From Candidatus Hadarchaeales archaeon (GTDB lineage: Archaea; Hadarchaeota; Hadarchaeia; Hadarchaeales; Hadarchaeaceae): a stretch of 32,000 nucleotides of DNA. A model generated the notes under the pieces. It was not told where the DNA came from and ran no database searches. It saw nothing but the letters and a program-made list of their open reading frames with translations. The stretch's first letter is position 1. The number at the start of each line of letters is the position of its first letter. This document shows, in pieces, positions 9,815 to 32,000 of this stretch. The stretch lies in NCBI GenBank assembly GCA_038823825.1, contig JAWBCC010000001.1, positions 120,001 to 152,000 of the forward strand, written 5' to 3'. Both the position numbers and the translations under genes were made by a program.

Positions 9815-9818
9815 GTCA

Positions 9819-11389: not shown

Positions 11390-11433
11390 CTTGGCTTTAT
11401 TATTGGAAATAGGTTAACTATTTTTGGTGTGGA

Positions 11434-13182: not shown

Positions 13183-13229
13183 GAGCTAAAGCTATATTAC
13201 CGAGTTATGTAAGATAAACTGGGGATAGT

Positions 13230-15828: not shown

Positions 15829-16644
15829 TCATTTGATAGCTCCGCGCGTGAGGCCCATTATCAGATACCTCTGGAAGATAAGAAAGACCACCAAAAGCGG
15901 AATCGAGGCTAGCAAAACGCCCGCAGCCAAAAGCGGATAATCTGGAGCTCTTCCGCCTATTCCGGCCAAAGTCGCTAAGCCATAGACGAGAGTCGTGTCA
16001 GGATACTCGAGCATGAAAGACGGAAGTATAAAGTCGTTGTATGGGACCAAGAACGCCATAAAGGCTATCACTCCTAGAGCCGGTTTTGCGAGGGGAAGTA
16101 TTACTTTTACGAAAGTCTTGAAGTGTCCGGCTCCGTCCATAATCGATGCTTCTACGAGTGTTTTCGGTATGGTATCCATGTATCCCTTTAAGAACCAAGT
16201 ATAGAACGGGACACTTGAACCCGCATAGATGAGTATCATTCCGGCCAAGTTAACTAAACCCAAGCTGCTCATTATCTTGTATATAGCGACCATTCCGACC
16301 AGCGAGGGGAACATTTGAGCAAAAAGCATAAAGGCAAGCATCTGTTTACGCCCGGCAAACTTCATAAAAGAGAAGGCGTATGCTGCCGGACATATCATCA
16401 CAAAGGTTAGAATTATCGTTCCAAGACAGATTATAGCCGTATTCACCGCCCAAAGGATGAAGTGCTGCTCACGGAATAACTTCACGAAGTTTTGGAAAGT
16501 TATGGATTCGGGCATAAGGCTCGGCGGTATGAACGTGCTTCTGAGAGAGGCCGTAAATATAAAGAAGACCGGGAACAACACGGCCAAAACGACGATGATC
16601 AGCATAAAATGACTGAGCAAAATTTCCAGCTTCTCTTTCTTCAT
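15829..16644 (-). CDS. Sugar ABC transporter permease (MalG-like)
   Basis: 6 TM helices and the EAA loop EASIMDGAGHFKTFVKVILPLAKP. ATGA overlap with the upstream permease gene. Confidence 0.9.
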   Translation of the reverse strand: MKKEKLEILLSHFMLIIVVLAVLFPVFFIFTASLRSTFIPPSLMPESITFQNFVKLFREQHFILWAVNTAIICLGTIILTFVMICPAAYAFSFMKFAGRKQMLAFMLFAQMFPSLVGMVAIYKIMSSLGLVNLAGMILIYAGSSVPFYTWFLKGYMDTIPKTLVEASIMDGAGHFKTFVKVILPLAKPALGVIAFMAFLVPYNDFILPSFMLEYPDTTLVYGLATLAGIGGRAPDYPLLAAGVLLASIPLLVVFLIFQRYLIMGLTRGAIK

Positions 16645-17522
16645 CTGACCACCTCTTTTGTGGCTCCAGTAATCTTGAGGTTTATGAAGGTCAGGCCGGC
16701 TAGGATGAAGAAGAGAATGACAGAGAAAGCCGCGGCTATAGCATAGAAGTGTCCTTCACCAAAGGCGAGCCTGTAGAAGTATGTTATCATTATGTCACTA
16801 CCTCCCGGGGCATTTGTAACTCCCGTCGGCGGTCCTCCCTCCGAAAGCATCCACACGACCGTAAAATTGTTGAAATGGAATGCGAATGTGAATATAAGAA
16901 TTGGGACTATCACAGACTTTAGAAGCGGAAGGGTAATTTTCCAAAATTTACGGATCTTACTTGCACCGTCAATTGCTGCGGCTTCATAGACACTCGGTGG
17001 AATGCTTTGGAGGCCTCCGAGGCAAGCACACATCATGAATGGAAAGGCGGTCCAAACATTCACAAGAAGTATTATCATCCTTGCTCCCCAGACGCTTTGA
17101 AATCCTCCCTTAAGGTAAAGGGACCAACTTGTTCCTAACAAACCTCTCCAAGCCATTATCGTTATCGTGGATGGAAGGGCCCAGGGGATTATCAGAAGAG
17201 TCCTGTAGATTGCCCTACCCTTGAGCTTAGGATTGTTCAGGATTATTGCGAGGACAAGTCCGATTGAGAATGCGATTCCAACTGAAAGAGCAGCGAACAA
17301 GAGGTTCCAACTGAAGACACCTAAGAAATATCTGGTGTAGCCTCCTTTGACGATCTCAGCGTAGTTCTGAAGTCCGACAAATTCGTAATGCGGATCATGA
17401 CCAGGACCCCAGTTTGTGAGGGAGATATAAATGTTGTATGTGCTGATGGCAAGGATCGCAAAGCTCATCCCTATGACCGCAGGGAGGATAAAAAGATATG
17501 CGCTTTTTTCTCCGATTTTCAT
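16641..17522 (-). CDS. Sugar ABC transporter permease (MalF-like)
   Basis: 6 TM helices and the EAA loop YEAAAIDGASKIRKFWKITLPLL. Confidence 0.9.
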   Translation of the reverse strand: MKIGEKSAYLFILPAVIGMSFAILAISTYNIYISLTNWGPGHDPHYEFVGLQNYAEIVKGGYTRYFLGVFSWNLLFAALSVGIAFSIGLVLAIILNNPKLKGRAIYRTLLIIPWALPSTITIMAWRGLLGTSWSLYLKGGFQSVWGARMIILLVNVWTAFPFMMCACLGGLQSIPPSVYEAAAIDGASKIRKFWKITLPLLKSVIVPILIFTFAFHFNNFTVVWMLSEGGPPTGVTNAPGGSDIMITYFYRLAFGEGHFYAIAAAFSVILFFILAGLTFINLKITGATKEVVR

Positions 17523-17526
17523 AACA

Positions 17527-18756
17527 TCACCTTCTCTTCGCTATCGACTCTTTCATCTGTTGCACAGCCTCCTCCAACGTGGATGCAGGATCCTGCCCTA
17601 GGACGATCATCTTCAGAGCGTTTGTCCAAGGCGTCCACACACTGTCCATTTCAGGGATTTTGGGCATTATTATTCCATTCTCTATCTGGGCGAGAACTAT
17701 TCTAACCTCTTCCTTATTTTCCATTTCAGCAAGCACATCAAGTCTGCTTGGGATTCTCCAGCCGGCCTGATGCAGAGTTCTTTGGGAATTTTCACTACTG
17801 AGGAATTTCGCAAGATTCATCGCTGTTTCAAAGTTCTTGGATTTTGGGTTGACCATGCAGACTTGAACCCCCACAAACGTTTTCGGATATTCTCCGTTCG
17901 GGAGCTTCGGAAAGTTTGATATCCTATAGGTTATTCCCGCTCTTCTTATTTCCTCGAAGGCCCAAGGTCCATCGATTATCACAGCCGCCCTGCCCGCTTT
18001 GAAATACTCACGCACCGAGTAGGGATTAAGAGTAGTATCTATCGGTAGGACACCGTCCTTTACCATTTGCTGGATGAATCGTGCGCCATCAATGGCGCCG
18101 GGATTTGCGAGTCCTATATTTTCAACATTCTCTTCATCCCCGAAAACATATGCCCCGTAGCCCGACATAATCGGAAAAGAGTAATAAGGATCGACATGTG
18201 GATAATAGAAACCAAAGAAGTCAGGTCTTCTCACGGATTTCGCATAATTGAGAAGGTCCTCCCAGTCTTCAAAAGTGTTCTCAACCAAGCCAGAATTGTA
18301 AATTAAAACTAAGCTCTCCATCAGGCATGGAAAACCCCATATCTTGTTTTCATATGTTACCGCAGAAAGAGCCTTTTCAAAGAATTTGCTTTTCTCGCTT
18401 TCGGGGAAATATTCGTCCGTGATTGGGGCGATAACGCCCATTTCTGCAAACTCTCCTATCCAGTCATGTGGACCGAGCAAAACATCTGGTCCCTTTCCGA
18501 TGGGAACACCAACTCGGTATCTCGATCTTAGATCTTCGATGTTTGCTACCCAGACAACTCTTACGGTGGTTCCTTCTTCTTTCTCAAAGATTTTGACGAG
18601 ATTCTCAACAGCTTCGACTTCGCTCCTGACTAATCCAATCCAGAGCGTGATTTCACCTCTGGGTATTAGCATTTGTCTAGTAGGGATGAGGATTACAAAA
18701 GCAACAACTGCAAGCAACATATATGTGAAGAGCCCAGGTGTTCGACTCAACCTCAC
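17527..18756 (-). CDS. Extracellular sugar (maltodextrin-type) ABC substrate-binding protein, N-terminally anchored
   Basis: 409 aa family-1 SBP pattern (GPDVLLGPHDWIGEF; IIDGPWA) with an N-terminal hydrophobic anchor. It is the first gene of the E-F-G operon. The start is GTG 18756, or ATG 18720. Confidence 0.85.
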   Translation of the reverse strand: MRLSRTPGLFTYMLLAVVAFVILIPTRQMLIPRGEITLWIGLVRSEVEAVENLVKIFEKEEGTTVRVVWVANIEDLRSRYRVGVPIGKGPDVLLGPHDWIGEFAEMGVIAPITDEYFPESEKSKFFEKALSAVTYENKIWGFPCLMESLVLIYNSGLVENTFEDWEDLLNYAKSVRRPDFFGFYYPHVDPYYSFPIMSGYGAYVFGDEENVENIGLANPGAIDGARFIQQMVKDGVLPIDTTLNPYSVREYFKAGRAAVIIDGPWAFEEIRRAGITYRISNFPKLPNGEYPKTFVGVQVCMVNPKSKNFETAMNLAKFLSSENSQRTLHQAGWRIPSRLDVLAEMENKEEVRIVLAQIENGIIMPKIPEMDSVWTPWTNALKMIVLGQDPASTLEEAVQQMKESIAKRR

Positions 18757-18763
18757 ACCAAAA

Positions 18764-18785
18764 AATATTCAAAAATTTCAATATT
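18764..18785. promoter_or_regulatory. Imperfect 22-nt palindrome AATATTCAAAAATTTCAATATT in the malE-like/malK-like divergent promoter region
   Basis: 18 of 22 positions are self-complementary. It overlaps the candidate minus-strand TATA (18780-18787) and the TATA-to-start interval of the SBP gene. The region is AT-rich, so a chance occurrence is plausible. Confidence 0.25.
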
Positions 18786-18838
18786 AACTTTTTTGGATTG
18801 AGAGAAATTAATAAATCCCAGTTCTGTGTAAAAATTAT

Positions 18839-19930
18839 TTGATAAACTTGGCAAGCGTTACCCTGGAAAACGTCACCAAAAAATTTGGTCAAGTAACTGC
18901 AGTTGATAACGTTTCTTTAGAGGTTAAGGATGGGGAACTCGTTGTTCTTGTTGGGCCGAGTGGATGTGGAAAATCAACCTTGATCAGAATGATAGCAGGG
19001 CTTGAGACACCGGACGAAGGAAACATCTATTTAGATGATTTGCTTGTAAACGACTTGCCTCCCAAAGACCGGAACGTTGCAATGGTTTTTCAAGATTACG
19101 CTCTCTATCCACACATGACAGTTTTTGAGAATATGGCATTCGCTTTAGAGAATTTTGGATATGATGAGAGAGAAATTCGAAAGAGAGTCAAAGAGGCGGC
19201 CCATCTACTGGGAATCGAGAATCTTCTAGACAGGAAACCGGCGCAGTTATCTGGAGGTCAAAGGCAAAGAGTTGCACTTGGAAGAGCCATCGTTCGTGAA
19301 CCGAAAGTTTTCCTGTGGGATGAGCCGCTCAGCAATATTGACGCAAAACTGAGAGTCGAAATGAGGGCAGAACTGAGAAAGCTTCAGCGCAGGCTCAAGG
19401 TGACGACCATTCATGTTACGCACGATCAAGTCGAAGCAATGACAATGGCCGATAGGGTTGCCGTAATGAAGGACGGGAGGATAAGACAATTCGATTCACC
19501 GGAAAAAGTTTACAGCAAGCCTGCGGATGAATTCGTCGCGAGTTTCATAGGAAGCCCACCAATGAACTTCTTTGACTGTGTTTTGACGAGAAAGCGAGGA
19601 AAGCTCGTTATAGAGGCTGAAGAGTTTGTGTTGGATGTCCCAAGAGAACTGAAAGATATCCTCAAGGGTTTGGTTGGCAAGGAACTGAGATTTGGAATAA
19701 GACCCGAGGACATATGCTTTTCGACGAAGAAAGGCGGAATAAAAGCAAAGGTGGATGTTGTTGAGCCATTGGGAGCAGAAGTTCTTGTTCATCTTCTAAT
19801 CGGCAAATCTCCAGCCATGATGCGGACGGATCCGAAGAGTGCACCGAAACCTGGTGAAATGGTTTTACTCGAGTTCCCATCGGAGAAGTGGCACATCTTT
19901 GATAGAAAGACGACAAAGGCGATTATCTGA
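18839..19930 (+). CDS. Sugar ABC transporter ATP-binding protein (MalK/MsiK-like) with a C-terminal TOBE-like regulatory domain
   Basis: Walker A GPSGCGKST, signature LSGGQRQR, Walker B VFLWDEPLS, H-loop HVTHD. Candidate starts are TTG 18839 or TTG 18848 (MASVTLENV). Confidence 0.95.
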   Translation: MINLASVTLENVTKKFGQVTAVDNVSLEVKDGELVVLVGPSGCGKSTLIRMIAGLETPDEGNIYLDDLLVNDLPPKDRNVAMVFQDYALYPHMTVFENMAFALENFGYDEREIRKRVKEAAHLLGIENLLDRKPAQLSGGQRQRVALGRAIVREPKVFLWDEPLSNIDAKLRVEMRAELRKLQRRLKVTTIHVTHDQVEAMTMADRVAVMKDGRIRQFDSPEKVYSKPADEFVASFIGSPPMNFFDCVLTRKRGKLVIEAEEFVLDVPRELKDILKGLVGKELRFGIRPEDICFSTKKGGIKAKVDVVEPLGAEVLVHLLIGKSPAMMRTDPKSAPKPGEMVLLEFPSEKWHIFDRKTTKAII

Positions 19931-22900
19931 GACTGAGAAGGATCTTTAAGATTATGCCAGCCACCACTGCGATTCCGATACTTACTCCTATGAATGTGTA
20001 GTCGAGCTTGGGTTTTTCTTCGAATATTTCGACCGAATATCCCAAATTGTTCTCTCCTCGATCCCAGACGGTTTCACCTCCGCCAATGGCTTTAATCATG
20101 AATGTGAGTTTTACATCCGCGAATGGTCCCAATTCTGCGATCCACCACCCGGTGGTTGGATCGATTTGCATCTGCGTTTCTCCGCTACTACCTTTGTTGG
20201 TCCACCAAACGACAAAAACGCTTTCAATTGTCCCTTCGGTCTGGCATGAAACTCGCACGAAATTACCAAAAAGAACATAGCTCGTGTTTTTTATTTTTAG
20301 ACCGACAGGAGGCAAAGGAGTTCTAACTTTTACAGTCAGAGTTTTCCTCTTTTCTAAAGATCCAGACTTAGCCGTGACTGTTATCTCATAATCTCCGTCT
20401 GAGGTTTCCCTTCCAACCGATATGAACAGGCTTGCCGTGAATGGCGGATAGCCATTTTCAGGATAGACCGAGAGCAGAAAACCTGACGGACCGGAAATTT
20501 TGAGTTCCACCAGATTTTCATACACCCCCAAATTTTCGATTCTTAACTCCACAGTTTGATTTTCACCTGCTCTCGCCTGAATCTGAGATGGTATGATTTC
20601 AAGTCGGAAGTCTGCCACGGGCAGCGCGACCGTATAGTATACAATGACTGTTTTTGTATTAACATCTTTCAGATTTAACCTAAGTTTTTCTCCGTCGACG
20701 TGCACTATGTCGTTTTCGCCATCTATTTCCACTGTTACAGCAGGAAGTCCAGCCGGTAGGGTCAGCTCAAGCAGAATCTGTTCATTTTGCGCAGAGATAT
20801 CGACCTTTTGCATATTTTCATTCCAAGAGTAACTGACCTTCAGCGGCTTCCCTCTCACAATAGTTCTGCCAGAAAGGAGATTCGTGTTCTCAAGAGGTTT
20901 AGGAGATATAACTGTATAGTTCTCGAACGGCTTTACCCCGAGGAACACTTGATAATACGTTCTCAAAAATTCTGCAATCGACCAAGCCTGCGTCCAGCAA
21001 CCTTTTGGCTTATCTCTATCACCATCGCTAATCTCGTGAATGGCCCCAACGTTTGCTTGCTGGAGTAGTTGCTTTTTGAATAAATGAAAGAGATGTGAAG
21101 CTTCCCCAAGCTTATTCGATTCTGCCATGACTTCTATCGCAGGACCAGATAACCACGGCCAGACATCTCCGTTGTGATATGCGGGTGGATCCCACGTTTG
21201 ATCGTCAATTCCAACGTAAAGCGGATCCGCCGGATTTAGCGATCTTACACCATGCGCCGCTATCAGTCCGCTTGAGATCGCAGTTTTAATGGCTTGCTCT
21301 ATTTTCTCTGAGGGAAGCAAATTCTCGGCTACGGAGATAGCTATTAGAGCGTTCGGTCGGATTCTAGCCACTGCCTGCCCTGCGGGTGTAATATAATCGT
21401 TGAGGTATCCTGTCGATTGGTTCCAGAATTTAGCTTCAAAGTTCTTACGCGCATTTTCGGCTATCTCCCACCACTTCGCACTCTTTTGATTTTGTCCCAA
21501 AATTCCAGCAATTTTTGCCGCATCATCCAGAGCCTTTATCCACAAAGCCTGTATCTCTACGGGTTTTCCTATCCTAGGATCTCTCGAAGTGTCCATCCAA
21601 GTTTCCAAATTGTCACTTCTGACGAAGCCGTCTGTTGGATCACCGTAGACCGCCCAAGTTCTCTCGATCGCTCTTTCGATCACCGGGAAGATGTCGGAGA
21701 GAAATCCACTATCTCCACTGTACAGATAATACTCATAGCATCTGATGATGAACCACAAGGTGGCGTCGGAGGTCGTATAGGCGCGCCAGTCACCAATCCT
21801 GTTCGGAATGCGACCGTCGCTTTCCCTCTGAAATCCTGCGAAGCTTAGGATTATCTCTTTTGCTTCTTGAAGTCTACCAGTAACGAGTGCAGACCCGCTC
21901 AGACTTATGAAAGTGTCTCTTCCCCACCCCTGATTGAACCAAGGAAGACCAGCCCATATCACTTTTCCAAATTCTTCATTCACGATCAAACTGTCAACGG
22001 AGGCTACAGCAAGCTTTAGAGCTTTTGTTAATGAAGGATCCGAGGTCTGAATCTCGCATGACTGTATGAGCGAAAGAATTCTGGATCTCTTTGTGTCCAG
22101 CAGGTCGGAATAGCTATTGATCGCCGATCTCGCTAAAGATATGGCTTCCTGAGAGGTTTTACCAACAGCAATGGCAAATAGGACATCCCGAGCATTTTCA
22201 ACGACAAGAGTTCCACTTCTATAAACGTTCCAAAAAATCCGTTGTTTGTTTTCTATTCTCATTTCATCGAAAGGATATTCGTGCGTGGCGCTTCCCCCTC
22301 CCGACTGATAGGTGGCTCCTTCTCGACAGGTGATTGCCACATATGCCACATTCTCTCTGTCGGACGCCCTAGAATGAAGTACAAGCACACCATTCTCGAA
22401 GTATTCCTCGTCGCTATATGAGATATCCAGAAATGGTGTGAATCTGATGGTAGACTGTGAATCTCCTGCGTATCTTACGAAGAAAACGTTTAGGTTATCT
22501 GGAAGGAAAATTTCTTCGGTCCAGCCACCGGCGGATCTGAGCAGTTTGTAAGGCAGATATGTAAAAGTTGATGGGGCGGGCGTAATTCTTTGCCCGCCGA
22601 TTTCGGTTGCCCAGCTTTCAACGACTCGTTTATTCTTCACAGTAAAACCGGAAAACTGCGAAATTGGCTCACCAGTAGTTGAAATCCAGAGAAAAGAGTC
22701 TTTCTTGTTTGTGAAAGTGCAAGCCAAAGACCATTCCGAGTTACCGGTGATTGAAAATTCGGGTTCACCGAATTCTATTGATGAGTTGAGCCACATCGGA
22801 AAATTCTCAAAGATTCCCAGTTCGCTTGGAACTTCTCCGGACATCCCCACAGATTTTACCGCGTTTTCGGCAGCTTGGAGCGCAAGATTCAGGGCTGTGT

Positions 22901-24191
22901 AGCACTTCTGTGCCCAATCCTGAGAATCCCAGAACCAGTAGCAACTTGTTTCTGCCATCGCAAAATATCCCCAAGCCCTTTTCATGTAGCTCTCTGCCAG
23001 TGATCCGTAAATTTGAGAATCGATTTGTTTGAGTTGTTGTCTAACCTCCGCAACTCTTTGCCACATCTCTCTGTCTAGCTGGCTACCGGCCCAAGTCGAG
23101 AGGTCTAATCTTGCTCCGCCTACTCCCCAGGAGCCGGTTTTTATCTTTATCACGTCGGTCGGGCGGTAGACTTCACGCAGATACTCGCTGATAGTGGTTA
23201 ACCTTATCCAACCTTCATTTTTGATTCGCTCAAGAAATCCTGGCCAGAACCAGTCGTAATATCCGGCTCCTGCCTGTCGCATCCATCCGTTTTCACCATC
23301 GCTTAGTATGACTACGAGGAAAGGTTTGCTCGGATCGTTGTTCCACTGCTGAATTATTCTGAGTTGATCAATCAGGTAAGCCGGATCGAAGCCATCCTGC
23401 TGGTTCTGACCGAGCCAGTGCTCCCTTGGAATGACGATTATAAAAACTCCAGCATATTCGGCTAGGTGCGGCCTGAAAGCCAGCTCACAGTATGTTCTGG
23501 ACCATTTGGTGTTATCCGATCCAATGATGTGAAAGCTGTCGAAAAAGACCCACTCTATTCCAAAACTTTTCAACCATGGGATTATATTTTCGCTGAAGGC
23601 GAGTTCGGGTGGAAAGAATCCCTTCGGAGTAACTCCAAAATATTTCTTACACCACGCCAGCATCTTCTGGAAGTGGATTTGTGCATCCTCTCTTTCGATT
23701 AGCGGGAATATTGGGTGATAGAAACCATCGATCACGAGTTCCAATCTACCTGTTTGAATCGCCCGTCTGTACTCGTCCCAGATACCCGCCAGACTTGTGT
23801 CTTTTGAAACGAAATTCTCTTTTGCCAGAAAATCGAGTTGCCACAGAAGCGAACCCGTAAAGTGGACAGTTATCTTTGCTTCCGGATAGGTGTTTACGAG
23901 CGTCGCTGGCCTAAGATAGCAGAAGCCACACTCTTCGAAGACATCTTTAACAGTCATGCTTGAACCAGGACTCGTTGGACTGTTGAAATAATCCCAGCCG
24001 ATCTGCATTCCAGGATGGTAGATCGGTTGGTGAAAATGAACAGCGAATGCGATGTAAAGGGGGACTTGTGTCTGGCTTTTTGATGGTCTTGGGAGTAGTG
24101 CGACAGCACCCAAAAGGACAAGTATAACCAACAGTATCGCAAGTCGCATTCGAATGTTTGTATTATCTCTTGCTGGTAATAAATGTTTCAT
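19923..24191 (-). CDS. Cell-surface multidomain glycoside hydrolase: GH57 domain + amylo-alpha-1,6-glucosidase (GDE_C-like) domain + Ig/NEW3-like domain + putative starch-binding module + C-terminal TM anchor
   Basis: Signal peptide (LAILLVILVLLGAVALLPRPSKSQ). GH57 conserved regions are all present: HFHQPIY (24018-24038), GRLELV, FPPELAFS (Glu codon at 23604-23606), LSDGENGW (Asp codon at 23298-23300), AETSCYWFW. GDE_C motifs: GLPWFNQGWGRDTFISLSG (about 21909-21929) and YHNGDVWPW (21153-21179). C-terminal module: WW..GWW..WDRGENNLGYSV (about 20022-20303). TM plus basic tail at the 3' end. Confidence 0.85.
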   Translation of the reverse strand: MKHLLPARDNTNIRMRLAILLVILVLLGAVALLPRPSKSQTQVPLYIAFAVHFHQPIYHPGMQIGWDYFNSPTSPGSSMTVKDVFEECGFCYLRPATLVNTYPEAKITVHFTGSLLWQLDFLAKENFVSKDTSLAGIWDEYRRAIQTGRLELVIDGFYHPIFPLIEREDAQIHFQKMLAWCKKYFGVTPKGFFPPELAFSENIIPWLKSFGIEWVFFDSFHIIGSDNTKWSRTYCELAFRPHLAEYAGVFIIVIPREHWLGQNQQDGFDPAYLIDQLRIIQQWNNDPSKPFLVVILSDGENGWMRQAGAGYYDWFWPGFLERIKNEGWIRLTTISEYLREVYRPTDVIKIKTGSWGVGGARLDLSTWAGSQLDREMWQRVAEVRQQLKQIDSQIYGSLAESYMKRAWGYFAMAETSCYWFWDSQDWAQKCYTALNLALQAAENAVKSVGMSGEVPSELGIFENFPMWLNSSIEFGEPEFSITGNSEWSLACTFTNKKDSFLWISTTGEPISQFSGFTVKNKRVVESWATEIGGQRITPAPSTFTYLPYKLLRSAGGWTEEIFLPDNLNVFFVRYAGDSQSTIRFTPFLDISYSDEEYFENGVLVLHSRASDRENVAYVAITCREGATYQSGGGSATHEYPFDEMRIENKQRIFWNVYRSGTLVVENARDVLFAIAVGKTSQEAISLARSAINSYSDLLDTKRSRILSLIQSCEIQTSDPSLTKALKLAVASVDSLIVNEEFGKVIWAGLPWFNQGWGRDTFISLSGSALVTGRLQEAKEIILSFAGFQRESDGRIPNRIGDWRAYTTSDATLWFIIRCYEYYLYSGDSGFLSDIFPVIERAIERTWAVYGDPTDGFVRSDNLETWMDTSRDPRIGKPVEIQALWIKALDDAAKIAGILGQNQKSAKWWEIAENARKNFEAKFWNQSTGYLNDYITPAGQAVARIRPNALIAISVAENLLPSEKIEQAIKTAISSGLIAAHGVRSLNPADPLYVGIDDQTWDPPAYHNGDVWPWLSGPAIEVMAESNKLGEASHLFHLFKKQLLQQANVGAIHEISDGDRDKPKGCWTQAWSIAEFLRTYYQVFLGVKPFENYTVISPKPLENTNLLSGRTIVRGKPLKVSYSWNENMQKVDISAQNEQILLELTLPAGLPAVTVEIDGENDIVHVDGEKLRLNLKDVNTKTVIVYYTVALPVADFRLEIIPSQIQARAGENQTVELRIENLGVYENLVELKISGPSGFLLSVYPENGYPPFTASLFISVGRETSDGDYEITVTAKSGSLEKRKTLTVKVRTPLPPVGLKIKNTSYVLFGNFVRVSCQTEGTIESVFVVWWTNKGSSGETQMQIDPTTGWWIAELGPFADVKLTFMIKAIGGGETVWDRGENNLGYSVEIFEEKPKLDYTFIGVSIGIAVVAGIILKILLSLR

Positions 24192-26239
24192 TTCCTTTTC
24201 ATCAGTGCAACGGCGGCAACGATTATCACAATCACAATCACACCGATGATCGGAAGAACTGGAATCTCGGTGGGTTTTTCTACGGGCGCTTCGACCTCCG
24301 CCACGAGCGGAACCGCAGGCACGACCGTGTATCCCTCAACGCCAAAGGCGTTCGTGTTGAATCCCGAGAGCACGGTTCTTTGATCACGACCAGGTGGCAC
24401 AATTATGTCTAGAACGTTCGGTGAGACACCGACGGCATATGCGGCCGAGTCAGCGCCCAAAATCTTCCACTCTCTCTCCGCTGGAGTTGCTTCGTTTTCT
24501 GGAAGCGCCAATCTCCAGCTCCAATATTCGCTGAAGCCATCCTGTGAGCCAGAAATGATTACCGCGTGCCATTTGTAATCAGTTGGAAGATCACCTAGGT
24601 ATTGTCTGACAATACTTTTTGGCAAGGAAGCCAAGACCGTTCTCGAAGCCAAGTCGCAGGAGACGGTAAGAACTCCAGTTATGACATCATATTGTCCTGC
24701 GAAGACCACCCAATTCCTTCTAGCCTTATGTGGCTTGTAGAATCCGGTTATTTGAATTCCGAAATCCCAAGCGTGGGCTTCTTCTATTTTAATTCTCGGC
24801 CCCTCCCTGCTAAATGGTATGGTCTCTCCTCCAGGCTTACAATCCACCCAGACTTCCACGAGTTGATAGGAGAAACCAGCTTCTCCGCTCCACACGTTTC
24901 CTCCAAGCCTGTCGGCGGCGAACTCCACGGCGAAATAATAGTTCTGCGCATCCTCGAAAAACATGAATTTTGTGATATCAAACAGACCCGTCTTGCCTTG
25001 GAAATATGCGCTTTCCGGATATCTGTAGGTGCCAGGTCCGTAATCATCACCCACTGGGTCGGTAATTTCAACAACTCTTTCTGCAACCCATATCTTGAGC
25101 GGAGCAGTGTGCGAAATTGTGCCGTCGCTTGCTCTAACGGTGATTTCATAGATGCCCGAGGTGGTTTCTTTTGCAACTGAGATCGTCAAAGTTGAGGTAA
25201 ACGGTGGGGTCCCACTGGTTGGACTGAAGTTTACACTAACCCCACTGGGCAATCCTGTTGCTTCAAGCGAAACCGTCTGTGAATATCCGAGGAATCTTTT
25301 AACATTAACAGAAACCTGTGCAGACTTTCCGACCTGAATAATCCTGCTGCTAGGTGTTACCGCGATTGTGAAATATGGTCTTCCCGGAATTGGTCCCACG
25401 GCTGGAACCCTAGCATAGGTCCCAGTGTTTTCATTGAATCCGAGGAGAACACTCTTCTGAGTCATACCTTCAGGAACAAGTATGTCCATCGGTCTCGGTT
25501 CGACTTTTGCAGCCATTACCCTTGATTGCCAAGTTGCTCTGGCAGCATCTGGATCGGGTAACCAGCGAATGAAGATGAGAGATTTTTCAACCATGGCTAC
25601 CTTTCTCCACGCTCCAAGGTTGTCAGAGCCGACGAGTACTGTGCAATACCAAGGAGCTGATTCACTTGGGGATCCAACGACGGATTTTGGCACGCTTATT
25701 TGAACTTTCCCAGTTGCTTGGTTAGCTGTTACGAAGACATCGAAAACTTCTCCCGTTTGCCATCTTCCATGTGTGTTGTATCTTCCGCCGTAATTTCTCG
25801 GCCAGCCGTTCGCTCTCACCGCCCACTTCCAGCCATTCTGAATTACGACCTTCGCCGAATCCTCTGTTTCCGTGTCCGAGACGGGGATGACCGACGTGGC
25901 AGTCCCTGTTCCATCGTTTACGTAAATCTCTATGAGTTGAATGGAGAATCCATGTGGAGCACCATCTGGGTTCCCGCCGAGATTTTTGAATGTGAGTTCG
26001 AAGATTATGTTTGTTCCATCATCCTTGACCGCAAAGTAAGTCAGATCGAAAACTCCAGGAGCAAACTTGGGGTCCTCCGGATACATGAAGTCGTCAATTC
26101 CGTGGTCATCATCCTCCGGATCCTCCATCTCAAACAGGACGTTTACAGCTTGAGCTTTCGACGGTCTCGGTAGAATTATGAGCGAGAGCATCAGAAAGCC
26201 CACAATCAATATACATATTTCTCTCTTCATTCCCTCCAT
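24188..26239 (-). CDS. Cell-surface, apparently non-catalytic protein with two glucodextranase-C-like (SLH-like binding module) domains flanking an Ig/NEW3-like domain; C-terminal TM anchor
   Basis: Signal peptide (ICILIVGFLMLSLIILPRPSKAQA). Copy 1 (about 25395-26137) has EDPEDDDHGIDDFMYPEDPKFAPGVFDLTYF. Copy 2 (about 24310-25075) has TDPVGDDYGPGTYRYPESAYFQGKTGLFDITKF. The copies end in ILVPEGMTQKSVLLGFN and IIVPPGRDQRTVLSGFN. No glycosidase motifs were recognised. The C-terminus is IIGVIVIVIIVAAVALMKRK. Confidence 0.6.
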   Translation of the reverse strand: MEGMKREICILIVGFLMLSLIILPRPSKAQAVNVLFEMEDPEDDDHGIDDFMYPEDPKFAPGVFDLTYFAVKDDGTNIIFELTFKNLGGNPDGAPHGFSIQLIEIYVNDGTGTATSVIPVSDTETEDSAKVVIQNGWKWAVRANGWPRNYGGRYNTHGRWQTGEVFDVFVTANQATGKVQISVPKSVVGSPSESAPWYCTVLVGSDNLGAWRKVAMVEKSLIFIRWLPDPDAARATWQSRVMAAKVEPRPMDILVPEGMTQKSVLLGFNENTGTYARVPAVGPIPGRPYFTIAVTPSSRIIQVGKSAQVSVNVKRFLGYSQTVSLEATGLPSGVSVNFSPTSGTPPFTSTLTISVAKETTSGIYEITVRASDGTISHTAPLKIWVAERVVEITDPVGDDYGPGTYRYPESAYFQGKTGLFDITKFMFFEDAQNYYFAVEFAADRLGGNVWSGEAGFSYQLVEVWVDCKPGGETIPFSREGPRIKIEEAHAWDFGIQITGFYKPHKARRNWVVFAGQYDVITGVLTVSCDLASRTVLASLPKSIVRQYLGDLPTDYKWHAVIISGSQDGFSEYWSWRLALPENEATPAEREWKILGADSAAYAVGVSPNVLDIIVPPGRDQRTVLSGFNTNAFGVEGYTVVPAVPLVAEVEAPVEKPTEIPVLPIIGVIVIVIIVAAVALMKRK

Positions 26240-26258
26240 CTAAAGTATTCTTCTGCGG

Positions 26259-26331: not shown

Positions 26332-29300
26332 GTGACGTTGAAAAAAATCTTTCCTGCATTTGTTTTTTTGGCGCTTTTCTTTATGGCGCCATTTGCTTCT
26401 TCGTCTAAAATTTTGGACGTTGGAGCGGCTGCTTCACCTTCGACATATCGGGCGCCCGATTGGGTAATGAACGCAGTTTTTTATCAGATAATGGTCGACC
26501 GTTTTTACAACGGAGACCCGTCTAATGATCCGGACAATAACACCCTTCTCCTTCGCTCCTGGACTAATATAAACGGTGTCACTTTCCCAGATCTCTATGC
26601 TAGAAAAATGCGCTGGACGGAGGATGTTGAAACAAACGTACTCTGGCCGGACGATTATGGAAACTTGAGATATGCACCTACACTCGGAAGAGACTATTAT
26701 GGCGGCGATTTCAAGGGGATAATGGACAAACTTCCTTATCTTGAGAATCTCGGAATAACAGCAATATACTTTAATCCGATTCATGACGGTCCGCACTTCC
26801 ACGGTTATACGGTTGAAAACTATGAATCAGCCAACAAGTTTTATGGCGGGCTCGACATGTTCAAACAAATGCTCTCCGCGCTAAAGGAGAAGGGAATAAG
26901 GGTGATTCTTGACGGTGTGTTCAACCACACGAGTTGTACACATCCATGGTTTGACCGCGAAAATAGATTCCCAGATTATCTGGGTGCATACGAAAGTCAA
27001 AATTCACCATATTTCAGTTGGTACAAATTTTGGCAATGGCCTCTGAACTATGAGGGATGGAACAATTTTTCTCATGTTCCGCAGCTCCAACTTACTGAAG
27101 GATACAAAGACTACCTTTACCGAAGTTCAAACAGTCTGTTGAAATACTGGAACGATATAGGAATAGACGGCTGGCGTCTCGATGTCGCCATGCAGATGAA
27201 AGATAGATTTGGCTGGGCGTTCTGGCGGGAATTCAGTCAAGCCTTCAGCCAGCTGAATTCAGAGGGATACCTCGTCGCGGAACCAGACCATGGAACGGCA
27301 GCTCAGCCAGATTACGTTACTCAGGGTTACCTAGACGGCGTCATGAACTATGCTTGGATGCACGCGGTTATAGACTGGGTTAATGGAACGGCTAGTCCGA
27401 GCAGCTTCGCGGGGAGACTGGAGTACATAAAGAATGCATATCCGGCAGATGCTTTCTACACACAGCTTAACATTCTGAGTTCGCATGACGATCACAGACT
27501 GAGAACGCGTGTTGGTGGAAGAATTGACAGGGTTAAGCTTGCCGTGATTTTCCAGATGACATACCCAGGCGCCCCGTGCATATGGTATGGGGATGAGGTC
27601 GGGATGACGAGCGACTATCCGAGGGGGAGTGGAACAGTCAGAGATGCGGATCCGTTTACTAGAAGACCGTTCCCCTGGCCAGAGCTAGGATACCCGGTCC
27701 CTGAACAACCAGACGTTCCGAACTGGGATATCTTCAGGCACTACCAAAACTTGATTTCGATAAGAAAGAGTTATCAAGTCCTTAGAACTGGAACGGTCGA
27801 GACTCTGATGACGGATGATGGTAAGAAGATTTTGGCACTATTCCGAAAACTTCCAAATCCAAGTTTAACAAAATATTCGAACTGGAGAACTGAATATGCG
27901 GTTCTCGTCTACAACAGTGGCGCTTCCCCGCAGAGCGTTACTCTCAATCTCACCGGAAAAGTTCCCAATGGTACGGAGCTCGTCGATGTTCTAAATGGAA
28001 ATCGAAAGTATACGGTAACAAACGGAACTGTTTCGCTAACTGTCGAAAACATGTGGGCAGCGATTCTGGTTTACACATCAAACCAACCACCGGTTGCAGA
28101 TTTCACGTTTTCTCCCACTTCTCCCGCTCCAGGTGAAACCGTGCAGTTTACTGATAACTCGAGAGATCCAGATGGGACAATAGTTTCCTGGCTATGGGAT
28201 TTTGGCGACGGGACTTCGAGCACCCAGCGTAATCCAACAAAGGTCTATACAGCATCCGGAACATACACAGTAAAGCTGACGGTGACTGACGATGGAGGCG
28301 CGAGCGCGACAGTCTCCAAATTGGTGGTTGTGTCAGAAGCTCCGGCGCCACCTCCGGGAGTCAAGCCAACAACCTTAACAATAGATCCTACCTCCTTTTC
28401 GCTAGCTTCAGGAGCTTCGAGAACTCTGATGGCGATTTTGAAGGATAACGAAAACAATCCGGTCGCAGGAAAGACGATTTTGTGGTCGGCAACTGTCGGG
28501 AGCATATCGTCCTCCTCCGTCACAGATTCAAACGGAATGGCTGCCGCAACCTACACGGCCCCATCTGTTACCGCTCAAACTTCAGTGACCATTACCGCAA
28601 CTTTTCAAGGTGACAGTCAGTATGCTTCATCAACCGGTCAAAGCATTGGAAGCATCTCGCCCATATCGGCTCAGTTGAGTCTGAGACCAATACCATCCAC
28701 TATAGCGGGTTCTGACATTATACTCAGCGGGGTGGTCGAAGATCAAGCCGGTAATCCTATACCAGGAGCATCTTTGAAAGTTCTCATAAATGGTCAGGTC
28801 GTTCAGACGGCAACGGCTGGTGGAGATGGAAGTTTCAGCATAGCCGTCACACTTCCTCCTGGCTCAAGCAGTCTAAGGCTAGAAGCCTACAGCGGAGAAG
28901 GAGAACTTCTTGCGTCATTCTCCCAAAATGTTACAACTTCTGCTGAATATTCTCCACCCACGGGAATTGACAGTGGAATGATTGTAACATATGGCAGTAT
29001 TCTTTCTGCGATCGGCTTGGCAATAGGTGTTCTTATCGGCAAAATCCGGATAACGGGCAAACTCTTCTCACTAATTTTTGCAGTCTTTCTTCTGCTTTCT
29101 TTGGTTCATACAGTTCCAGTCAATGCGCCCACTAGGACCGTTGATGGTTCTCCAGCCGACTGGACTGGCACCCCGCCAACAACTGTAAACACGTTTACTG
29201 TTTCCGCCGGGGAATTCATATGGAAGGATGCGCAAGGCGACGAGCGTACAGACCTGAATAATTGGCAACCGGATAGAAGAGTGGATCTTTTAGAGTTCAG

Positions 29301-32000
29301 AATCACTGCCGATACACAATATATATACTTCATGGCAAAAATGGTCGATATCGACATAGAATCTGGAAGTGGAGCTCCGTGTGTCCAAGTTGCAGTGGAT
29401 ACCGATAGGATAGCCGGATCAGGGGAGAACTGGTTTGGTGGATGGTCAGACACAGCGACGAGCAACTCCGCGCGTTGGGAGCGTCTGATTATGACGAGAT
29501 TTGGGAGCGGATCACAGAGGGTTTATGTGTTTAATACAAGTTGGGTGGATCAGGCGACATCAGATGACACTCAAGCGATATCTGCCCAAAATGAAACAAT
29601 CGAGTTCAGAGTTGGATGGGCGAGACTTGGAGTTTCGCCACCTTGCACCCTGAGGTTCACGGTGATAACTCACAGACAGAATACCGACGACAATTCTGTG
29701 GACATTTCTAATACCTCCGATGCTCTTGATGCGATAACAACAACCGGACCAACCACTTGGAACGAGGTCCAAGATCAAATAGTCGATTATTATTTTGACG
29801 TGAGTTTTGCTTCGAATGGCGAGGTCGTAGGATCTGTCCCTGTAGGCGCTTCAATAGATAGCGATATCTGGTGGGAGGGCGTTTTACATGATCAAGACAA
29901 TTCCTTCTACTTCTCACCCCAAGGGGAAACGACAGTACTCCCCCCATTGCTTGATAGAGGAAGGCGCATTCTATATGATCAAAACGTAACTGTCAGGCTT
30001 AGAACAAATGAGAACGACCTGAGCGAAGTTTGGCTTAGAATCTGGTGGGAGAACATTTATGAAAACAATGTTGTTGAAAATGCCGCCGTGAGATATCGGA
30101 TGTCAAAAGAAAGCTCGGATGGGACGTACGAATACTGGGTTACCACAATTCCCGCTCCGGGAAGGCCGGCAAGAATGTGGTATAGGTTCTATCTCGTTGA
30201 CAACGGCGGAACGGGCACATACAGCTGGGACATCTGGCAAAATCCGGTGAATATAGGAACGCAGGTGGACATCGATAGTTACGCCGATGACACTTTTCCG
30301 AGGAACGGAGGAACAGGAAAAATGTATGATTTTCCGCAAACTAGAACGGAGAGCACAGTTCAGCCTGTGGACAACTATGACTTCATGATCATCTTTTACG
30401 AAAACATACCGCCAGCCGCTGTTTCTCTTATTTCGCCAGAGAACGACGCTTTGCTGACATCGGTTCCGACCTTACGCTGGACGGCGTCAGTAGATCCGCA
30501 ACCATCCTCCGGTCTCGGATATCGCCTTCAGATTTCTAAAGTTTCCGACTTTTCCACAACTGTTGTTGATATATATGTGAAAGAAAACTCTTATCAGCCG
30601 AGCATCGGAGAAGGAGTATACTTCTGGAGGGTTAGAGCAGAAGACTATGATGGAAACGCGAGCAACTGGTCGGAGGTCAGACGCTTTCGGCTAGATCTCG
30701 GACCACCACCGGCTCCAACGCCGATTTCTCCGCCCGATAACTTCTGCACAAAAGAAAATCGAATAACCTTAAGCTGGACGAGAGTTCCGGATGCATCAGA
30801 GCCGGTTCTGTATCGTGTCGCTCTGAGTGATGATGCAGGTTTTCCATACGAAAACTTCACATCCGGCTGGGTCATGGAGAATAGCTGGCAGGTTGAGCTT
30901 CCCGAGGGAATATGGTACTGGAGAGTTTGCGCGAAGGACAACCTCGACCAGATCGGTGAGAATTCCGTGACCAAAAGATTTATCGTCGACATTACTCCAC
31001 CACAACCACCAGAGATCTTGTATCCTGAAAATGGTGAAAGCGTGAATGTGAGGAGACCAACACTCAGATGGTCGACTGTGACCGACGTAAGCATGCCTGT
31101 GACGTACGATCTTCAACTGAGTGGCTCCCCAACTTTCTCTACCCTTATCGTAGACAATTCTGGTCTCACGGAGAACTCGTATACTCTCACAATCGACCTA
31201 GAGGAAAGGGTTTACTACTGGAGAGTGAGAGCGAAGGACAATGCCGGAAATCTGAGTGATTGGGTTGTGTCCTCTTTCATTGTTGATCTCACGGCGCTAC
31301 CAGCCCCCACGGGCCTCTCCCCCACGGGTTTCATCAACACGAAAAGACCGCAGTTCCGTTGGTCTCCTGTACAAAGCATTTTTGATGTGGTGTACATCTT
31401 TGAACTCGATGATAGCCAAGACTTCTCAAGTCCTCTCGTGGTCGAAAACGCTCTAACAGATACTTCTTACCAGCTTCAGTTTGATCTATCAGATGGAAAA
31501 TATTATTGGAGGGTAAGAGCGAAGACAGAATTAAAAACGGGACCAGCGGCCAGCGCATCCTTTACGGTAGATACTATACCCCCATCAGCTCCAGAGATTT
31601 TGACATCCTTGCCGGCCAGCACTAGGGTTAGGAGATGGATGATAGTTGGAACAGCGGAGGCGAATGCAACCGTTCAGTGTTTTGTTAACGATTCCCTAGT
31701 TGCGGAAAATGTGGCAGAGAATGGAAGCTTCACGCTGTGGGTTACCTTCCAACTCGGACAGAATAGCGTAAAGTTCAGAGCCGTTGACAGAGCAGGAAAC
31801 GCGAGCGTCTTTACGTCTTCGATCGGAATTAAGGTTACCGGAGGACTCGGAATTCGTCTGACTGCAGACCGACTCCAAGCAGGAGTTGAGCGTGCCTTCG
31901 CACTAGTCGGATATCAAACAAGCATTCAAGAAATAAGAGTGAAGACAAATAAGGATGTCGCTGCTCCGGCGATTTACGTCGAAGAGCTTATGCCCTGGGA
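26332..32000 (+). CDS. Giant secreted multidomain alpha-glucan-active protein (partial, 3' end beyond the window): signal peptide, GH13 catalytic domain, PKD, 2 Ig-like domains, TM hairpin, binding-module-like domain, Alpha-amylase_N/CBM34-like domain, 4 FN3-like repeats, Ig-like domain
   Basis: Frame +1 has no stop from the TAA at 26326-26328 to nt 32000 (1889 codons, verified by hand). GH13 regions: FYQIMVDRFYNGDPSND, VILDGVFNH, GIDGWRLDVA, YLVAEP, LSSHDD. PKD domain (28096-28332): WDFGDGTSS..GTYTVKLTVTDDGG. The ORF is missing from the supplied track. The start codon is uncertain (GTG 26332 or TTG 26338). Confidence 0.88.
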   Translation, partial: MTLKKIFPAFVFLALFFMAPFASSSKILDVGAAASPSTYRAPDWVMNAVFYQIMVDRFYNGDPSNDPDNNTLLLRSWTNINGVTFPDLYARKMRWTEDVETNVLWPDDYGNLRYAPTLGRDYYGGDFKGIMDKLPYLENLGITAIYFNPIHDGPHFHGYTVENYESANKFYGGLDMFKQMLSALKEKGIRVILDGVFNHTSCTHPWFDRENRFPDYLGAYESQNSPYFSWYKFWQWPLNYEGWNNFSHVPQLQLTEGYKDYLYRSSNSLLKYWNDIGIDGWRLDVAMQMKDRFGWAFWREFSQAFSQLNSEGYLVAEPDHGTAAQPDYVTQGYLDGVMNYAWMHAVIDWVNGTASPSSFAGRLEYIKNAYPADAFYTQLNILSSHDDHRLRTRVGGRIDRVKLAVIFQMTYPGAPCIWYGDEVGMTSDYPRGSGTVRDADPFTRRPFPWPELGYPVPEQPDVPNWDIFRHYQNLISIRKSYQVLRTGTVETLMTDDGKKILALFRKLPNPSLTKYSNWRTEYAVLVYNSGASPQSVTLNLTGKVPNGTELVDVLNGNRKYTVTNGTVSLTVENMWAAILVYTSNQPPVADFTFSPTSPAPGETVQFTDNSRDPDGTIVSWLWDFGDGTSSTQRNPTKVYTASGTYTVKLTVTDDGGASATVSKLVVVSEAPAPPPGVKPTTLTIDPTSFSLASGASRTLMAILKDNENNPVAGKTILWSATVGSISSSSVTDSNGMAAATYTAPSVTAQTSVTITATFQGDSQYASSTGQSIGSISPISAQLSLRPIPSTIAGSDIILSGVVEDQAGNPIPGASLKVLINGQVVQTATAGGDGSFSIAVTLPPGSSSLRLEAYSGEGELLASFSQNVTTSAEYSPPTGIDSGMIVTYGSILSAIGLAIGVLIGKIRITGKLFSLIFAVFLLLSLVHTVPVNAPTRTVDGSPADWTGTPPTTVNTFTVSAGEFIWKDAQGDERTDLNNWQPDRRVDLLEFRITADTQYIYFMAKMVDIDIESGSGAPCVQVAVDTDRIAGSGENWFGGWSDTATSNSARWERLIMTRFGSGSQRVYVFNTSWVDQATSDDTQAISAQNETIEFRVGWARLGVSPPCTLRFTVITHRQNTDDNSVDISNTSDALDAITTTGPTTWNEVQDQIVDYYFDVSFASNGEVVGSVPVGASIDSDIWWEGVLHDQDNSFYFSPQGETTVLPPLLDRGRRILYDQNVTVRLRTNENDLSEVWLRIWWENIYENNVVENAAVRYRMSKESSDGTYEYWVTTIPAPGRPARMWYRFYLVDNGGTGTYSWDIWQNPVNIGTQVDIDSYADDTFPRNGGTGKMYDFPQTRTESTVQPVDNYDFMIIFYENIPPAAVSLISPENDALLTSVPTLRWTASVDPQPSSGLGYRLQISKVSDFSTTVVDIYVKENSYQPSIGEGVYFWRVRAEDYDGNASNWSEVRRFRLDLGPPPAPTPISPPDNFCTKENRITLSWTRVPDASEPVLYRVALSDDAGFPYENFTSGWVMENSWQVELPEGIWYWRVCAKDNLDQIGENSVTKRFIVDITPPQPPEILYPENGESVNVRRPTLRWSTVTDVSMPVTYDLQLSGSPTFSTLIVDNSGLTENSYTLTIDLEERVYYWRVRAKDNAGNLSDWVVSSFIVDLTALPAPTGLSPTGFINTKRPQFRWSPVQSIFDVVYIFELDDSQDFSSPLVVENALTDTSYQLQFDLSDGKYYWRVRAKTELKTGPAASASFTVDTIPPSAPEILTSLPASTRVRRWMIVGTAEANATVQCFVNDSLVAENVAENGSFTLWVTFQLGQNSVKFRAVDRAGNASVFTSSIGIKVTGGLGIRLTADRLQAGVERAFALVGYQTSIQEIRVKTNKDVAAPAIYVEELMPW
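28978..29127 (+). other. Internal TM hairpin: an anchor-like TM (MIVTYGSILSAIGLAIGVLIG), the basic loop KIRITGK, and a signal-peptide-like segment (LFSLIFAVFLLLSLVHTVPVNA) inside the giant ORF
   Basis: Two hydrophobic stretches of about 15-21 residues are separated by a loop with three positive charges. The second ends in V-N-A followed by Pro. Confidence 0.6.
30409..31578 (+). repeat. Four tandem protein-level repeats (98, 98, 99 and 95 aa) of an FN3-like beta-sandwich module inside the giant ORF
   Basis: Unit boundaries are 30409, 30703, 30997, 31294 and 31578. Each unit carries P-x-L-(R/S)-W near its start, and then (Y/W/F)-(Y/F)-W-R-V-(R/C)-A-(K/E)-(D/T) and, in three of the four units, G-(N/E)-x-S. 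Each ends in F-x-(V/L)-D followed by a Pro-rich linker. The DNA copies are strongly diverged. Confidence 0.7.

Follow-up and report, generated by a model that had tools for sequence, protein, structure and literature searches.

The 32,000-nt window analysed here (positions 120,001 to 152,000 of contig JAWBCC010000001.1, assembly GCA_038823825.1, from Candidatus Hadarchaeales archaeon) carries near its end a long open reading frame (ORF) in which two adjacent surface-protein genes appear to have been fused in frame, so that the C-terminal anchor of one protein runs into the signal peptide of the next, an origin that is well supported by comparison with relatives. The initial annotation of this DNA had proposed such a junction, and this core reading was borne out, given that the second hydrophobic segment occupies the signal-peptide position of its homologues and that a related locus, L005, still keeps the two genes apart. 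The ORF was recovered in full on the JGI metagenome contig Ga0105163_1000030 (L001, positions 7955-14017), where it comprises 6063 nt and 2020 aa, is 100% identical to the database protein P0009 and ends in ...TIAVLFCVGAVVGFFLSSKIFKRSGKRQ before the stop codon, that is, in a transmembrane (TM) segment and basic tail of its own. With no stop codon, no internal start and no promoter-like or ribosome-binding-site-like signal at the junction, the gene as read is shown to specify one 2020-aa chain from the ribosome.

In frame 1 the junction reads ...SPPTGIDSG-MIVTYGSILSAIGLAIGVLIG-KIRITGK-LFSLIFAVFLLLSLV-HTVPVNA-P-TRTVDG without any stop codon, and the ORF and the elements of the junction are as follows.

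26332-32000, plus strand: fused ORF, continuing past the window end
28978-29040, plus strand: first junction TM segment (TM1), M883-G903, 21 residues, MIVTYGSILSAIGLAIGVLIG, detected by hydropathy, AlphaFold helix 881-903, homologous to ...ILGGILAIVIALFFILRKK before the stop in the split locus L005
29041-29061, plus strand: loop KIRITGK, residues 904-910, three positive charges, RKISTGR and KLRVRGT in other lineages
29062-29106, plus strand: second junction TM segment (TM2), putative former signal-peptide h-region, LFSLIFAVFLLLSLV, residues 911-925, 15 residues, detected by hydropathy, helix 909-924
29107-29130, plus strand: putative former c-region HTVPVNA (926-932) and Pro933 at +1 of the ancestral cleavage bond

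A stop-less junction with these segments in this order at 28978-29130 had been described correctly in the initial annotation, and its statement that no ATG, GTG or TTG lies in frame within 29041-29100 also holds, the next in-frame start-type codon being TTG 29101, inside the hydrophobic core. The A4 run (29041-29044) and the TAA of the +1 frame (29051-29053) to which it drew attention are both present, and both fall in the loop. A simple motif scan over 28800-29135 detected neither a TATA-like element nor a Shine-Dalgarno (SD) sequence with a start codon in that interval. Residues 911-935, LFSLIFAVFLLLSLVHTVPVNAPTR, form a tryptic peptide that spans TM2, the c-region and Pro933.

A 15-residue hydropathy scan of the fused protein detected only four hydrophobic segments, namely the N-terminal signal peptide, TM1, TM2 and the C-terminal TM, with TM2 as the strongest (2.95), while the same scan found just one N-terminal and one C-terminal hydrophobic segment in each of the neighbouring surface proteins, which are the GH57+GDE_C, the Glucodextran_C and the transglutaminase-like protein. 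Residues 883-910 are built like a C-terminal anchor, with a hydrophobic helix of about 20 residues (883-903) followed by a Lys/Arg cluster (K904, R906 and K910), and comparable C-termini are found in the neighbours (...AVALMKRK and ...ILKILLSLR, each before its stop, as the initial annotation had quoted them) and at L005 (...FFILRKK); the position is not that of a C-terminus, since no stop codon follows and the ORF runs 1110 residues further. Residues 904-932 are in turn laid out like a signal peptide, with an n-region KIRITGK carrying three positive charges, a 15-residue h-region, a c-region HTVPVNA with Pro at -4, and small uncharged residues at -3 and -1 (Val930 and Ala932; the same pattern, V-M-A, in the relative P0010). 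Two features depart from this layout: the +1 residue is a proline (Pro933), and residues 904-932 stand in the interior of a 2020-aa ORF instead of at an N-terminus with an initiator codon. The loop KIRITGK looks like a former basic tail joined to a former signal-peptide n-region. The c-region HTVPVNA/P (the slash marking the bond) resembles that of a genuine signal peptide of the same genome, LLPVPVQA/R, which belongs to a transglutaminase-like protein (11434-13182, plus strand) that also has the layout of a signal peptide plus a C-terminal TM and basic tail. In an AlphaFold2 model of residues 837-1173 (mean pLDDT, the model confidence score, 80.5, and above 90 in the domain that follows the junction) the order is helices 881-903 and 909-924, the coil VHTVPVNAPTR and then a beta-sandwich.

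The two-gene origin is most clearly seen in the relatives of this beta-sandwich, a domain resembling carbohydrate-binding module (CBM) family 9, for which an exhaustive search found 422 sequences. In 105 of those examined the domain starts at residue 12-75, directly after an N-terminal signal peptide whose predicted cut lies three residues ahead of an xVDG motif, and the window protein has the same spacing, so that TM2 is homologous in position to the signal peptides of the relatives. Internal copies of the domain elsewhere are preceded by a plain linker, and of ~40 cases in which a pattern for the start of this domain matched inside other proteins, only those of this clade and the bacterial protein P0301 have both an anchor and a segment like a signal peptide ahead of it. 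By homology, TM2 is the former signal peptide of a second gene.

The split state is preserved at L005, in the Hadesarchaea metagenome-assembled genome (MAG) GCA_030018345.1, where the homologous gene of the GH13 family ends in ...GGLEVLPILGGILAIVIALFFILRKK and a stop (a TM followed by LRKK), an AT-rich spacer comes next, and the second gene lies in another frame. This second gene encodes P0172, which is 46-56% identical to the second half of the fused protein and begins [M..]KGK-FLGFLKLLMIACFLAAMSGFVEA/GTRTIDG, that is, ...KGKFLGFLKLLMIACFLAAMSGFVEA/GTRTIDG. Gene order and the homology of the proteins are thus shared between the split and the fused locus, whereas L005 differs in having a stop, a spacer of at least 47 nt (161 nt to the start chosen by the NCBI annotation pipeline PGAP) and a change of frame, and in a GH13 protein that lacks the PKD/Big/CarboxypepD_reg stalk. 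It is reasonable to suppose that the first ancestral gene encoded a secreted GH13 amylase held to the cell by a C-terminal TM and basic tail, and that the second encoded a signal peptide, the CBM9-like domain, a CBM34-like domain, FN3-like repeats, a PGF-pre-PGF domain and again a C-terminal TM with a basic tail; a deletion running from the stop of the first gene through the spacer to the start codon of the second would then have joined the tail in frame to the signal peptide.

Two side observations concern these relatives. The bacterial P0301 (1947 aa) has, at residues ~720-770, a stop-less junction ...TGCASAGGAGWVGALAALLALGRALGRRRR-GGATNG-VAALLLAFGGVFHAWNAAHA/HTITVNG followed by the CBM9-like domain, in which a MYXO-CTERM-like anchor leads, without an intervening Met, into a signal-peptide-like segment; this apparently independent case is known from one sequence, and a BLASTP alignment of P0301 with P0005 was dominated by Cys-rich repeats. 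Moreover, the predicted first mature residue is His in 61 of the 105 signal-peptide-bearing homologues (pattern A/H, then P, T or S, then V or I, then TVDG), with Tyr next (12); so strong a conservation of His right behind the cut points to a role for the free N-terminus, possibly in metal binding, and the archaeal subtype with xTR-TIDG lacks this His.

Comparison of orthologous loci, a check that the initial annotation had proposed, found the genes fused in P0010 and P0157, in P0320 and in P0011, and split in L005. The in-frame junction is thus kept in three further Hadarchaeales-type lineages, with GC contents of 61, 57 and 54%.

P0010 (2017 aa; ENA, L002, GC 61%), 71% identical to the window protein: MVSIYGGVALVAGLLIGFLAG-RKISTGR-ILSLSLAVLLLLSLV-PAVMA-PGRTIDG, an in-frame difference of 2 codons
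P0157, ~90% identical to P0010: junction as in P0010
P0320 (L004, GC 57%), fused type: MIATYGGILFIVGLFVGLLLG-KLRVRGT-LLALSVVFFILLLSSASPSRSA-ALDNN
P0011 (L003, GC 54%), 46% identical: TM1, an 85-aa Pro/Glu/Lys-rich loop, then MRYIGEIVRRSPKK-LGIIVLFASLGPMLVLTAA-QVSAQ-ASLDN

L002 is also syntenic, with genes for MalK, the GH57-GDE protein and the Glucodextran_C protein alongside that for P0010. Between L001 and L002 the proportion of synonymous differences (pS) is 0.7-0.9, that is, saturated, and that of nonsynonymous differences (pN) is 0.37 in the junction, against 0.09-0.25 in the domains; a frame left uninterrupted despite saturated synonymous divergence indicates that the junction is translated.

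In the related contig L004 (Logan SRR17863203_11090), at 8928-9054, a gene for a solute-binding protein (SBP), cut to 264 aa, adjoins the last ~35 codons of the first half before TM1. The genes for MalK, the GH57-GDE protein and the Glucodextran_C protein and the GH13 half are missing there, which reflects a genuine ~9-kb deletion or else a chimeric assembly, and in the remaining ORF the gene caller starts at the conserved Met of TM1. In P0011, which of the fused orthologues is the most distant, the segments on the cytoplasmic side are long Pro/Glu/Lys-rich tails, with 85 aa following TM1 and ~40 aa following the C-terminal TM (L003 ~2790-3090 and 6240-6371), and an SD-like AGGGAGAAGGGG directly precedes the internal ATG of the signal-peptide-like segment. 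Searches of reference genomes brought no additional fused or split lineages: a GTDB scan with the junction protein gave no match, and one with a profile of the conserved second-half core gave only distant Chloroflexi and actinobacterial CBM34-like matches (27-30% identity). In a full-length homologue search the GH13 matches beyond the three fused clusters were all bacterial (30-35% identity), and no close standalone orthologue of the first half was found.

Within the species, the cluster of the fused protein at 90% identity has 20 members (from NCBI, ENA, JGI and Logan), and all 12 members that cover the junction read through it identically; PGAP annotates an intact coding sequence (CDS) for the fused gene. 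L001 and the window are 99.56% identical at the DNA level over 13.6 kb, with 59 single-nucleotide polymorphisms (SNPs) and one indel, and their junctions are identical. The two halves have within-species dN/dS ratios of ~0.26 (first) and ~0.33 (second), and by this measure both are under purifying selection. As regards annotation of the 5' end, the start codon of the fused ORF is GTG 26332 or TTG 26338, in frame 1; PGAP places the start of its CDS (1993 aa, as in MEM1689026 and others) at Leu28, a TTG codon, and thereby omits the N-terminal signal peptide, which is included in the ENA, JGI and Logan gene calls.

These data bear on the suggestion, also made in the initial annotation, that an indel had merged two ordinary genes, and equally on the related idea of a decaying pseudogene. 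The A4 run and the out-of-frame TAA in the loop, together with the split arrangement in another Hadesarchaea MAG, could be taken in its favour, but 12 assemblies, produced by several pipelines, agree exactly on the junction, the 59 SNPs of strain divergence leave it unchanged, the frame is kept in three further lineages of different GC content, where the A-run is absent and the TAA is not conserved either, and no single-base indel would supply a start codon for a separate second gene. With purifying selection on both halves besides, we consider an artefact or recent lesion extremely improbable; on these comparisons it is refuted, and the fusion is judged genuine and selectively maintained. A frameshift or read-through at the A4 run was considered as well and rejected, as L002 lacks the run and there is no start codon after it.

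Separate production of the second half from an internal translation start, whether in addition to the long chain or in its place, seems very unlikely. The candidate codons would be Met883 of TM1, which is conserved at TM1 position 1 in P0009, P0010, P0157 and P0320 and is where the gene caller begins in the deletion variant L004, and the Met that P0011 keeps before its signal-peptide-like segment, with AGGGAGAAGGGG ahead of it. Against this, the motif scan found no conserved SD-like motif or promoter-like element ahead of ATG 28978, the L002 sequence upstream of the corresponding ATG is unrelated, Met is a common hydrophobic residue, and the window lineage has no start codon before TM2.

On the basis of the positive-inside rule and of the homology of each segment, the N-terminal signal peptide would export the GH13 half, TM1 would act as a stop-transfer sequence, the KIRITGK loop would stay in the cytoplasm, TM2 would work as a start-transfer sequence that re-opens the translocon and exports the second half, and the last TM would anchor the C-terminal end. 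The succession of a stop-transfer anchor and an internal signal peptide obeys the positive-inside rule, and the initial annotation was right that an arrangement of outside, TM, positive loop, TM, outside is self-consistent. The hairpin would be topologically locked, because loss of one helix alone would invert the downstream half.

The readings that remain differ in whether this chain is cut. The single most probable outcome, which we hold at about an even chance for the window lineage, is an uncut three-TM protein with two ectodomains and a mid-protein hairpin, the genuine fusion that the initial annotation had listed among its options. The lean towards an uncleaved hairpin and away from a cleaved polyprotein comes from the derived and conserved proline at the ancestral bond VNA/P. 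Pro occupies +1 in P0009, P0010 and P0157, whereas the 105 homologues with a signal peptide have other residues there without exception (His 61, Tyr 12, Gly 8, Ala 7, others), and since the split relative has Gly at this position the Pro needed two nucleotide changes and was kept afterwards. Neither the human Sec11A complex nor SpsB of S. aureus cleaves a bond with proline at P1' (PMC13385932), so that a cut at VNA/P, as the initial annotation had placed it without taking this residue into account, is unlikely as written. That the CBM9-like domain tolerates internal positions in other proteins counts against cleavage too. Several points nevertheless weigh against an uncut chain. TM2 is still signal-peptide-like, with Pro at -4, Val at -3, Ala at -1 and an h-region of 15 residues that is within the limit of ~18 set by the signal-peptidase ruler of Sec11-type peptidase (PMC13385932); in the sister lineages P0320 and P0011 the +1 position holds an ordinary residue (Ala or Gln), and the site there looks cleavable. 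Both halves also seem to follow a head-stalk-anchor design, and an uncut chain would pin the N-terminal head of the second half to the membrane. Finally, the +1 Pro probably reflects one evolutionary event, in two sister species, and its blocking effect is carried over by analogy to the archaeal signal peptidase from the human and S. aureus enzymes.

The polyprotein that the initial annotation had put forward as another option shares the fusion origin and topology, and would have signal peptidase I cut after TM2, at or near the c-region, to give the GH13 enzyme on a TM1-loop-TM2 hairpin and a glucan-binding stalk protein on its own C-terminal TM, 1:1 from one message; we regard it as a serious possibility, although one well short of an even chance. 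The signal-peptide hallmarks of TM2 (positive n-region, h-region of 14-19 residues, helix breaker, small residues at -3 and -1) are kept in four lineages, the AlphaFold model has a 16-residue helix followed by extended VHTVPVNAPTR, and P0320 (SRSA/A) and P0011 (VSAQ/A or VSA/Q) offer ordinary sites. Upstream of the Pro-blocked bond by 4-5 residues there is an alternative, SLV-x-[T or A]/V, which is conserved in P0009 and P0010, but such sites are weak, since the window protein has Thr at -1, P0010 has Pro at -2 and the c-region would number just 3 residues, and the main bond carries the proline discussed above. The head-stalk-anchor design of each half would favour a free N-terminus, as in the split homologue P0172, and cleavage would account for the tolerated loss of the stop codon. 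A cellular precedent exists in the astrotactins, which are cut by signal peptidase after the second TM (bioRxiv 10.1101/493858), and viral glycoprotein precursors offer a further precedent. The combined reading, in which an archaeal polyprotein is split at an internal signal peptide and junctions of an anchor with the next signal peptide may generally tolerate fusion since topology is preserved, an idea that P0301 supports, is one that we would advance tentatively and with some doubt.

A separation of the halves without signal peptidase, in which an archaeosortase-like enzyme or some other protease would take off the first anchor as a sorting signal, appears unlikely. A semi-conserved P-x-G-[IL]-D-x-x-M-[IV]-x-x-Y-G ahead of TM1, the PGF-pre-PGF domain in the second half and the MYXO-CTERM-like internal anchor of the bacterial P0301 are in line with it, but no NCBIfam CTERM model matched residues 837-932 or the C-terminal 105 residues at E <= 1, and no PGF, PEF or VPXXXP motif lies directly before the TM. 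We also know of no sorting enzymes that act on internal signals, which counts against this route.

Whether cut or uncut, the fused protein can be compared with several known systems. The viral envelope glycoprotein polyproteins of flavi-, bunya- and alphaviruses likewise thread successive ectodomains from one ORF by alternating anchors and signal peptides, whereas there host signal peptidase demonstrably cuts every junction, and the archaeal case is a cellular gene with one junction and an uncertain cut. In Bradyrhizobium japonicum, the FbcH cytochrome b/c1 precursor, a case associated with the work of Thony-Meyer and colleagues in 1991, reportedly yields two membrane-associated proteins from a single ORF by way of an internal signal-peptide-like segment, and is said to differ from the archaeal pair of a surface glycoside hydrolase and a binding protein in being a pair of respiratory complex subunits with a polytopic upstream partner. 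Astrotactins 1 and 2 share with the archaeal protein the order of N-terminal signal peptide, extracytoplasmic domain, TM1, short cytoplasmic loop, TM2 and large extracytoplasmic domain, and their second TM acts as an internal signal peptide (bioRxiv 10.1101/493858). They are eukaryotic (vertebrate) proteins of unrelated sequence in which cleavage was shown experimentally and the fragments are disulfide-linked, while the archaeal protein has Pro at +1 of the ancestral bond and a two-gene origin documented by a split relative. Ordinary multidomain GH13 and GH57 surface enzymes, such as P0279, P0317 and P0179, resemble it in combining a catalytic domain active on alpha-glucans with a CBM9-like domain and a C-terminal anchor; in these enzymes the domain follows a plain linker, and no anchor or signal peptide is left between the parts. 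In the literature searched there was no natural prokaryotic or archaeal case of a polyprotein or fusion with an internal signal peptide, and no description of such a fusion for archaeal surface enzymes, gene fusion and internal signals or anchors being known in themselves.

The domains on either side of the junction agree with the extracellular-type domains that the initial annotation had expected, with GH13, PKD, Big_1 and CarboxypepD_reg upstream and CBM9-like, CBM34-like and Ig/FN3-like domains downstream.

26332-26403, plus strand: N-terminal signal peptide MTLKKIFPAFVFLALFFMAPFASS, from the hydropathy scan, the translation and the gene calls of the cluster
26485-27792, plus strand: GH13 alpha-amylase catalytic domain, residues 52-487 (Pfam PF00128, E 1.7e-55)
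28081-28887, plus strand: first-half stalk with PKD (584-666), Big_1 (691-766) and CarboxypepD_reg (798-852) (Pfam)
29131-29841, plus strand: CBM9-like or glucodextranase-C-like beta-sandwich, residues ~934-1170, first domain of the second half (AlphaFold2 and Foldseek)
29977-30222, plus strand: CBM34-like domain (Pfam Alpha-amylase_N), residues 1216-1297
30415-31881, plus strand: FN3/Ig-like repeats and Big_6, second-half stalk (Pfam)

Beyond the window, within L001 ~13400-14017, the second half continues with the PGF-pre-PGF domain (TIGR04213, 65.8 bits) and the C-terminal TM with its KRSGKRQ tail. The blocks DGVFNH, GWRLD and SSHDD are readable in the translation of the first half, as befits a GH13 member, and the nearest NCBIfam models for this half are maltodextrin glucosidase and cyclomaltodextrinase, both scoring below their cut-offs. 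For the ~240-aa domain directly after the junction Pfam gave no match, and a PDB sequence search with the N-terminal region of the second half gave only matches to the maltogenic amylase N-domain at E ~0.4, so that a fold search was needed to place it; Foldseek matched the Arthrobacter glucodextranase 1ug9 (E 2.6e-6) and the CBM9 structure 1i82 (E 1.4e-4). The CBM9-like domain is also found in GH57 and GH13 enzymes of other organisms, and the second half looks like a non-catalytic, glucan-binding stalk protein with predicted sugar binding.

The genes next to the fused ORF fit the same substrate.

15829-26239: maltodextrin ABC transporter (SBP, two permeases and MalK) and two anchored surface proteins (GH57+GDE_C; Glucodextran_C)

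Judged by its gene content, the fused gene with its neighbours is a starch/maltodextrin utilisation locus. The GH57+GDE_C (amylo-alpha-1,6-glucosidase) protein (19923-24191, minus strand) has 1422 aa, a signal peptide and a C-terminal TM anchor, is conserved in L002, and by its two predicted catalytic domains is an extracellular debranching-type enzyme. The Glucodextran_C gene is transcribed divergently, and at its 5' end (window positions 26235-26246) the window differs from L001 by a 1-nt indel and two SNPs; this ORF has 683 aa in the window and 680 aa in L001, and the gene start differs between strains. An exact-sequence lookup of the Glucodextran_C protein gave no match, which the indel that sets its start region apart from that of other strains might explain. 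Further genes of the window are those for TBP, aTrm56, PAN, GatB and diphthamide synthase.

With the same protein pair split in one lineage and fused in four, these loci provide a natural experiment on topogenic signals, in which an anchor and a signal peptide have long been retained as a mid-protein hairpin. They point to a route to polytopic proteins through the tolerated loss of a stop codon between secreted anchored proteins, by which two bitopic proteins would become one polytopic protein in a single step. If the chain is cut, it would represent a rare instance of signal peptidase processing a polyprotein that is both cellular and prokaryotic; if it stays whole, the derived +1 Pro would be a natural example of a cleavable signal turned into a permanent helix. 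The case also calls for caution in annotation, as predictors of signal peptides and TM segments are tuned for N-terminal signals and the PGAP model of the fused gene drops the true signal peptide. Finally, the locus describes an extracellular starch-degrading apparatus, as predicted from its genes, for Hadarchaeota, an uncultured phylum.

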